A stretch of DNA of 799 nucleotides, taken from the NCBI RefSeq assembly GCF_003334815.1, contig NZ_QOWO01000118.1; one strand, 5' to 3'. The notes beneath the pieces are model-generated. The model was given only the letters and a program-made list of their open reading frames with translations. It did not search any database and was not told where the DNA came from. Numbering within the stretch: the first letter of the stretch is position 1; the number at the start of each line of letters is the position of its first letter. A program made the position numbers and the translations under genes. Source of the stretch: Escherichia coli (GTDB taxonomy: Bacteria > Pseudomonadota > Gammaproteobacteria > Enterobacterales > Enterobacteriaceae). Below, one piece after another: positions 1 through 799 of this stretch.

Positions 1-799
1 TAGTTTCTGTCCATGGCTGCTTTTCGCATCTTACGTCTTAACCCTGCCTTGAATACCTTATCATTCGTCAAAATATTAATAGCAATGTGCCGTATCCCTG
101 AAAATAATTCTGCTGCATTTCCTCTTCTTATTTTGCAGTCGTCTTCATTCATTACCACGTCCAGACGCCAGTGCAGCTTATTCTCCACGTGCCAGTGGTT
201 TCGGATTGCTGTGGCGAACTTCTCTGCGGTTAAATCAGCAGAACTGATATAATATCTGACCGTCATTTCTAGCTCTTTCTTTTGTTCTGCTATTATGGAC
301 CGAAAGGAGACTGCCACGCATAATTTCTTCAGCCCTTTCCATTCAAACGTGAAATCAATAAGTTCATCAGGGACATCGCAAACAATATGAAGACGGATTT
401 CTTCTCTGCCGTGACTCTTTTCACTCATTGCGTAACTGTCATGCTCTGGATTATTTAATTCTTTCAGCGGAAATTTTTCCTCAAAGGCTTTATTTAGCCG
501 CCCCTGGTTTCCTTTTACCGCGAATAAATAATCACCTCCCTGTTTTTGTATCTTCTCTGCAATATCTTTCTGGCAACCCATCGCATCAGTTGTGATGATT
601 TTTCCTTTAATATCCAGCATGTTAAGAAGTTCTGGGATAGCTGTAATCTCATTAGATTTCTCATCCGTCTTGATCTGTCCGATGACCAGACTGTGCATTG
701 TTGAGAACGCACTAATGACATGAATCGCTCCCCTGCGGCGACTCTTGTCATAAGAGTGCCGGAGCGTTTTTCCATCAATTGCAATGACGTCTTTATCAT
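1..799 (-). CDS. ISAs1-family DDE transposase (H-repeat-associated protein, ISEc1-like); internal fragment, truncated by the window at both ends
   Basis: Seen in sequence: reverse-complement frame with codons at + coords 797..3 translates to 265 aa with no stop: [265 protein letters not shown]. Chance of 265 stop-free codons in random sequence is roughly (61/64)^265, about 3e-6. Established knowledge: the motifs [25 protein letters not shown] and [20 protein letters not shown] are characteristic of ISAs1-family transposases, including the E. coli H-repeat proteins (YhhI/YdcC/YbfD/YbfL type). This recognition is from memory, not a database search. Full-length family members are about 370-380 aa, so roughly 100 aa of N-terminus lie beyond position 799 and a short C-terminal tail lies beyond position 1. 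No gene symbol given because the near-identical paralogs cannot be told apart from this fragment. Confidence 0.93.
1..799 (-). mobile_element. Internal portion of an ISAs1-family insertion sequence (H-repeat / ISEc1-like); no element termini inside the window
   Basis: The window is entirely occupied by the transposase gene of this IS family. Established knowledge: these elements are about 1.2-1.3 kb with a single transposase ORF filling most of the element, so the inverted-repeat ends would lie outside this window. None were looked for or seen inside it. Confidence 0.85.

Follow-up and report, generated by a model that had tools for sequence, protein, structure and literature searches.

Gene content of the window

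The window, by which the whole analysed stretch of 799 bases is meant, is an internal stretch of the transposase gene of ISEc1/ISEc5, the "H-repeat" of the ISAs1 family, encoded on the minus strand (Table 1). The window has one long open frame, frame 2 of that strand (translation of the reverse complement), in which 265 codons are open from end to end without a single stop codon; they specify residues 102-366 of a DDE transposase of 378 amino acids. The predicted product matches the NCBIfam equivalog 'ISAs1 family transposase' (NF033564) with 308.8 bits (cut-off 70; E 3.9e-92), from position 75 to position 314 of the 314-position profile, and the Pfam domain DDE_Tnp_1 (PF01609) over fragment residues 2-242 (E 4.6e-31). 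At the DNA level, the window is 99.6-99.9% identical to E. coli genes annotated as 'ISAs1-like element ISEc1/ISEc5 family transposase' (yhhI, ydcC); together with the NF033564 match, this identity bears out the initial annotation, which had called the sequence an H-repeat-type insertion sequence. That the window represents the central and 3' part of one E. coli/Shigella ISEc1/ISEc5 copy is the best explanation overall and can be held with near certainty.

Residues D109, D172 and E306, the codons of which all lie inside the window, are assigned as the putative catalytic triad by their position in DDE-family motifs. The N-terminal domain DDE_Tnp_1_assoc (PF13808) was found in full-length proteins that match the window product exactly over residues 102-366; the first 101 residues of the present copy, like its two IS ends, lie outside the window, and the copy could be truncated or disrupted there. 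The window has a G+C content of 41.9%, compared to roughly 51% for the E. coli chromosome; this low value fits a horizontally acquired element, as it does for the low-GC Rhs tips and O-antigen genes that are found beside ISEc1/ISEc5 copies. An RNA element or an overlapping feature was considered and rejected: an Rfam search of the window gave no match at E up to 1, and the plus-strand open reading frames (for example 13-252, 79 aa) only mirror the coding sequence of the opposite strand.

Table 1. Features of the 799-base window, in window coordinates, with the basis of each assignment.
Feature	Position	Strand	Basis
ISEc1/ISEc5 transposase ORF, internal part	1..799	-	translation, NF033564, 99.9% identity to annotated ISEc1 gene
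DDE_Tnp_1 (PF01609) catalytic domain, residues 103-343	72..794	-	Pfam
D109 codon, motif AIDGK, predicted first catalytic Asp	774..776	-	motif position
D172 codon, motif TTDAMG, predicted second catalytic Asp	585..587	-	motif position
E306 codon, motif HVENKLHW, predicted catalytic Glu	183..185	-	motif position
Codon 277 = CTA (Leu)	270..272	-	SNP tables

The complete element and its distribution

An alignment of six copies with their flanks defined the full ISEc1/ISEc5 unit as 1,291 bp with the ends CAGGGAAAGATCA ... TAATCTTGCCCTG; similarity across the six copies starts and stops sharply at both IS ends. The terminal inverted repeats begin CAGGG and are imperfect (CAGGGAAAGATCA / CAGGGCAAGATTA), with 16 of 22 positions matching in copies that are at least 99.6% identical to the window. 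Parameters for the ends or target duplications of ISAs1-family elements were not found in the open-access literature. The window spans nt 446-1244 of the 1,291-bp IS, with the IS ends falling 47 nt (IRR) and 445 nt (IRL) outside; therefore it contains neither an IS end nor any flanking DNA, as the initial annotation had recognized. A larger conserved transposon that would carry the Rhs tips as cargo was rejected, since similarity between loci ceases exactly at both IS ends.

ISEc1/ISEc5 sequence was present in 5,342 of 5,426 complete E. coli genomes, at 22,878 places that are nearly all chromosomal; the median per genome is 5 places and the maximum 11, in agreement with the earlier description of a multi-copy repeat. 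The copies of K-12 (MG1655) range in identity to the window from 99.4% (ydcC), 99.1% (yhhI) and 98.0% (ybfL) to 95.5% (ybfD, partial) and about 71% (yncI); the full-length ydcC and yhhI copies are 97.9% identical to each other, with stretches of up to 238 bp in which every base agrees. Among plasmid and phage records (72,556 and 50,697, respectively), sequences with at least 80% identity to the window came from Escherichia and Shigella only. They amounted to 22 plasmid records, several of them chromosome-sized, and one 1.5-kb phage-labelled record; on these counts a plasmid or phage origin was rejected.

Genomic neighbourhoods of close relatives

The neighbourhood was examined in the 40 best-matching complete genomes, which carry copies 99.6-99.9% identical to the window. 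These were placed by annotated neighbourhood (n=15), by junction-search coordinates (n=7), by PGAP label alone (ydcC or yhhI, n=10), or by lineage (n=8); the lineage-placed genomes are O157:H7/O55:H7 strains, and two of that lineage were checked. Twenty of the 22 copies placed by their flanks sit at an Rhs locus (nfrB, pptA, yhhJ, yafV and ybgA sides) and two are located inside O-antigen clusters; the remaining 18 of 40, placed by label or lineage only, likewise point to Rhs sites. Within the Rhs-linked group of 20, one copy lies between two rhs genes, and another has the rhs gene deleted next to an IS3. Every Rhs-linked copy is found downstream of rhs and co-oriented with it; the tips and immunity genes lie on its IRL side and a core gene directly adjoins its IRR, so that one flank is ordinary and the other accessory.

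The core-gene junctions were counted in the 5,426 complete genomes with queries that combined core flank and IS, 600 nt from each, and had to be covered to at least 80%. The yafV junction was found in 2,737 genomes, followed by nfrB (2,454), pptA (2,355), yhhJ (1,824) and the ybgA type (36). In the reading of ISEc1/ISEc5 as an exchange device, taken up below, the IS would form the exact, co-oriented distal boundary of the Rhs island, without a target duplication, at five or more chromosomal sites. The variable tips would then lie between two conserved repeats, one being the rhs core and the other the IS, and this bracket would permit cassettes to be replaced by double crossover with incoming DNA.

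Of the two copies in O-antigen clusters, one, 99.6% identical to the window, occupies an O169-type cluster in the order gnd - glycosyltransferase - wzx(O169) - IS - manB - manC. Another is part of an O2/O50 cluster with the order gnd - LTA-synthase-like - ISAs1 pseudogene - intact ISEc1 - DUF1972 - GT2 - wzy(O2/O50) - rfbC. The O-antigen cluster of O157 Sakai carries an annotated partial ISEc1 between manB and gnd; this remnant has 85.7% identity to the window and was rejected as its source for that reason.

The initial annotation had pointed to an Rhs element or a surface-polysaccharide cluster as the likely surroundings, and the closest relatives follow this pattern (20 of 22 Rhs-linked, two of 22 in O-antigen clusters), with two qualifications: the IRR flank at Rhs loci is always a core gene (nfrB, pptA, yhhJ, yafV or ybgA), and a 97%-identical copy resides in a tRNA-Asn island. 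The background on which this pointer drew, the occurrence of H-repeats in Rhs and O-antigen clusters, agrees with the literature: for Salmonella group D2, an H-repeat remnant is described at the point where recombination joined the O-antigen cluster, with K-12 yhhI as the reference H-repeat (PMC3715488), and H-rpt is treated as part of Rhs regions (PMC3032704).

The tRNA-Asn copy (97.2% identity; its product is the most abundant protein in the cluster) is located in an integrative island that is neither an Rhs nor a polysaccharide locus. The same island (L045 203-6565, minus strand; also L046-L049) carries two large co-directional open reading frames of 1,300 aa and 818 aa, which adjoin an OLD-like AAA_15/TOPRIM ATPase and a MazE/PemK pair. 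Searches of Pfam, NCBIfam, PADLOC and PDB sequences gave no match for either of the two; this gene group may be an uncharacterised defence module.

At the pptA site of strain ETEC6 (L056, NZ_CP041627, 5204-7816), rhsE and ydcD are missing. Next to the IS come a yncI-type pseudogene, an IS3 and a yncG that is truncated; this arrangement indicates that the Rhs element was lost through a deletion associated with the IS3.

Allelic identity, mosaicism and assembly behaviour

The exact window sequence was absent from the 5,426 complete E. coli genomes and from 65 examined loci, where the best matches are one SNP away; a 48-mer around position 271, in codon 277, had no exact match in the GTDB species representatives. 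The best complete-genome match (L001) differs from the window at position 271 only. Eight candidate full-length proteins were built by joining the window product to known N- and C-termini, and five of the eight exist in public data; the exact DNA of the window was absent from all 38 contigs that encode these five proteins (L007-L044). Three neighbours at a distance of one SNP were found (L001, L007 and L037), all of them Rhs-linked. The complete-genome best match has the arrangement nfrB / IS / PAAR/Rhs-Vgr; the two others, both from the contig set, have yhhJ / IS / rhsB and pptA / IS / rhsE tip. Because these one-SNP alleles sit at three different Rhs-linked sites, the window copy is not assignable to one locus.

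Codon 277 of the window (CTA, Leu) is a one-step intermediate between CCA (Pro), the yhhI/ISEc1-type codon, and CTC (Leu), the ydcC/ISEc5-type codon. The CTA codon recurs in four contigs (L007, L012, L036, L043), three of which have yhhJ at the IRR side; this distribution gives a weak hint that the window copy might derive from the rhsB site. The variable window positions (189, 270, 271, 426, 495, 519, 747 and 756) are shuffled among chromosomal loci, and no site-specific signature was evident at these positions in the compared alleles. Such mosaic alleles suggest gene conversion between copies.

Draft assemblies mostly read through the IS, sometimes with mismatched flanks. In the contig set, 28 of 38 contigs terminate on the Rhs side of the IS, at a distance of 0.2-5.3 kb from it and usually within an rhs ORF that is cut short; therefore the rhs core, and not the 1.3-kb IS, is the usual breakpoint. 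Mismatched flanks take several forms: the rhsB tip and yhhH are joined across the IS to pptA (L028, L029, L032-L036), the rhsE tip with ydcD and yncI to yhhJ (L039-L043), and the rhsC-side ybfC/ybfL to pptA (L030, L031); in one further contig (L018), pptA is joined to an rhs gene that is preceded by ABC-transporter and FtsX-type genes (identified by Pfam only), presumably the rhsD site. Flanks of different chromosomal sites are also joined across the IS in L050. The transposases at these hybrid joints have correspondingly mixed N- and C-termini.

Among the 5,426 complete genomes, the joint of rhsB tip, IS and pptA occurs once, in the itself oddly arranged genome of Origami2-DE3 (lnt / Rhs tip / yhhH / IS / pptA), and the joint of rhsE tip, IS and yhhJ does not occur; as a caveat, the hybrid-joint counts from drafts have no draft-assembly denominator, and the comparison of draft and complete frequencies cannot separate artefacts from real rearrangements. 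In K-12, a distance of about 2.1 Mb separates yhhI from ydcC, which lies in direct orientation to it, and a simple crossover between them would therefore split the chromosome. Mis-joining by short-read assemblers is probably the explanation for the hybrid joints; large duplications would yield the same joint. The initial annotation had warned of assembly collapse and read mis-mapping at this repeat. The hybrid joints in drafts, nearly absent from complete genomes, fit this warning, with the qualification that contig breaks usually fall in the rhs core and not in the IS.

These observations bear on the reading that the window itself is an assembly consensus, a collapsed or chimeric repeat that blends several near-identical copies. 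It would account for the lack of an exact match in any of the sequences searched (the complete genomes, the 65 loci and, for the 48-mer, the GTDB representatives), and for a codon 277 that mixes one ISEc1-type base with one ISEc5-type base; the identical runs shared by the K-12 copies, up to 238 bp long, and the draft contigs that join flanks of different loci also speak for it. However, the CTA codon appears in four independent assemblies, the window is a single base away from real alleles and its frame stays open, and mosaic alleles are common in complete long-read genomes as well. A blended consensus is thus regarded as improbable.

Transposition and proposed rearrangement

Perfect 10-bp target duplications flank three copies with 97.2-99.8% identity to the window: the tRNA-Asn island copy (ATTGGAACCC; L045 6857-8147), a yafV-site copy inside a yncI-type element (TGTTTAACGC; L052 3954-5243), and the O2/O50-cluster copy of strain HH97 (CTATATAAGG; L057 3954-5244, NZ_CP116409). 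Empty sites with a single 10-mer were identified for two of the three, near position 6491 of L059 for the island and near position 3682 of L058 for the O2 strains. The 10-bp duplications and the matching empty sites, the usual comparative signs of cut-or-copy-and-paste insertion, demonstrate that ISEc1/ISEc5 has transposed; on this comparative evidence, the H-repeat still transposes in present-day strains, including the insertion of a copy 99.6% identical to the window into the O2/O50 cluster. A review-type statement holds that H-rpt transposition has not been observed (PMC3032704); the duplications and empty sites qualify this remark.

No target duplication was found at the nfrB, yhhJ and pptA junction copies, as judged from the IS ends of L001, L002, L003, L053 and L056. 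The pptA-site copies share the IRL-side flank, and not the IRR-side flank, with the duplication-bearing yafV-site copy; since sharing is confined to the IRL side, the IS end marks a rearrangement joint. The simplest reading of the missing duplications would be that recombination between copies, or rearrangement mediated by the IS ends, has swapped the neighbouring DNA.

The fixed junctions might also be read as evidence of domestication, in which the YhhI/YdcC H-repeat ORF at Rhs loci has become a fixed gene with a host function and is no longer mobile. Identical junctions are common to 1,824-2,737 of the 5,426 genomes, the copies at these junctions lack target duplications and many retain an intact 378-aa ORF; the published statement that transposition was not observed (PMC3032704) points in the same direction. 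Against this, copies of about 97-99.6% identity have perfect 10-bp duplications with matching empty sites in other strains, the terminal inverted repeats are kept, and frameshifts or stop codons have turned many copies into pseudogenes, a state that speaks against strong selection for any host role. Domestication therefore appears unlikely.

Location and possible role of the window copy

An Rhs-linked position of the window copy is very probable. Its location inside an O-antigen or other surface-polysaccharide cluster has precedents in the 99.6%-identical copy between gnd and manB/manC of the O169-type cluster, in the duplication-flanked copy between gnd and wzy(O2/O50), the site of which is empty in other O2 strains, and in the partial ISEc1 of O157 Sakai; but O-antigen clusters account for only two of the 22 flank-classified copies among the top 40, all three one-SNP neighbours are Rhs-linked, and the O157 remnant is merely 85.7% identical, so that this alternative is very unlikely, and a location elsewhere is equally so.

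In the mechanism proposed here from comparison of sequences, an intact-looking DDE transposase with the predicted catalytic residues D109, D172 and E306 would insert the 1,291-bp element with a 10-bp target duplication. Most of the roughly five chromosomal copies have a fixed place at the distal end of an Rhs polymorphic-toxin locus, and a minority are located inside O-antigen clusters or other islands. The near-identical copies may also act as portable homology, and recombination or gene conversion between them could reshuffle the adjoining DNA. Reshuffling of neighbouring DNA is the role long proposed for H-repeats; the classic primary papers on these elements reportedly came from the Hill and Reeves laboratories. 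A stronger proposal, that ISEc1/ISEc5 goes beyond a passenger and is a specific device for exchanging Rhs toxin/immunity cassettes and O-antigen segments, is considered unlikely.

The window is an ordinary, already described E. coli insertion sequence and contains nothing new in kind. A suitable label would be 'ISAs1-family (ISEc1/ISEc5) transposase, internal fragment', and the region should be treated as a repeat for mapping and assembly. Its interest lies in what it flags: an Rhs polymorphic-toxin locus, less often an O-antigen cluster, is very probably located within a few kb on the IRL side. Known ideas on the diversification of Rhs and O-antigen loci are extended by the clean duplications with their empty sites, by the constant position of the IS end at the island border and by the contigs that combine flanks of different loci.

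Relation to known elements

The closest known elements are the two K-12 H-repeats at rhsB and rhsE. ISEc1 (H-rptB; yhhI, downstream of K-12 rhsB) is the same 1,291-bp element with the same ends and the same 378-aa transposase; the window is 99.1% identical to K-12 yhhI and 99.75-99.9% identical to other yhhI-locus and nfrB-locus alleles, and departs from ISEc1 at residue 277, which is Leu (CTA) in the window and Pro (CCA) in ISEc1. ISEc5 (H-rptE; ydcC, downstream of K-12 rhsE) shares Leu 277 with the window at 99.4% identity; it differs by one amino acid over the window, E219 in the window versus A219 in K-12 YdcC, and by synonymous changes at window positions 189 and 270. Since ISEc1 and ISEc5 are only about 2% apart and their alleles are mosaic, the window fits no single one of these names.

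The H-repeat remnants in the O-antigen clusters of Salmonella groups D2/D3 and E. coli O157 belong to the same IS lineage; they are degenerate (85.7% identity to the window in O157), in contrast to the window, which is an intact-looking stretch of a young copy. More remote relatives are IS1358 of Vibrio cholerae O139 and ISAs1 of Aeromonas salmonicida, which fall into the same IS family by NF033564; unlike the window, they occur in other species and are distant at the DNA level. IS1358 sits in the O139 polysaccharide region. It is listed as a member of the ISAs1 family in O139 genomes (PMC5674738).
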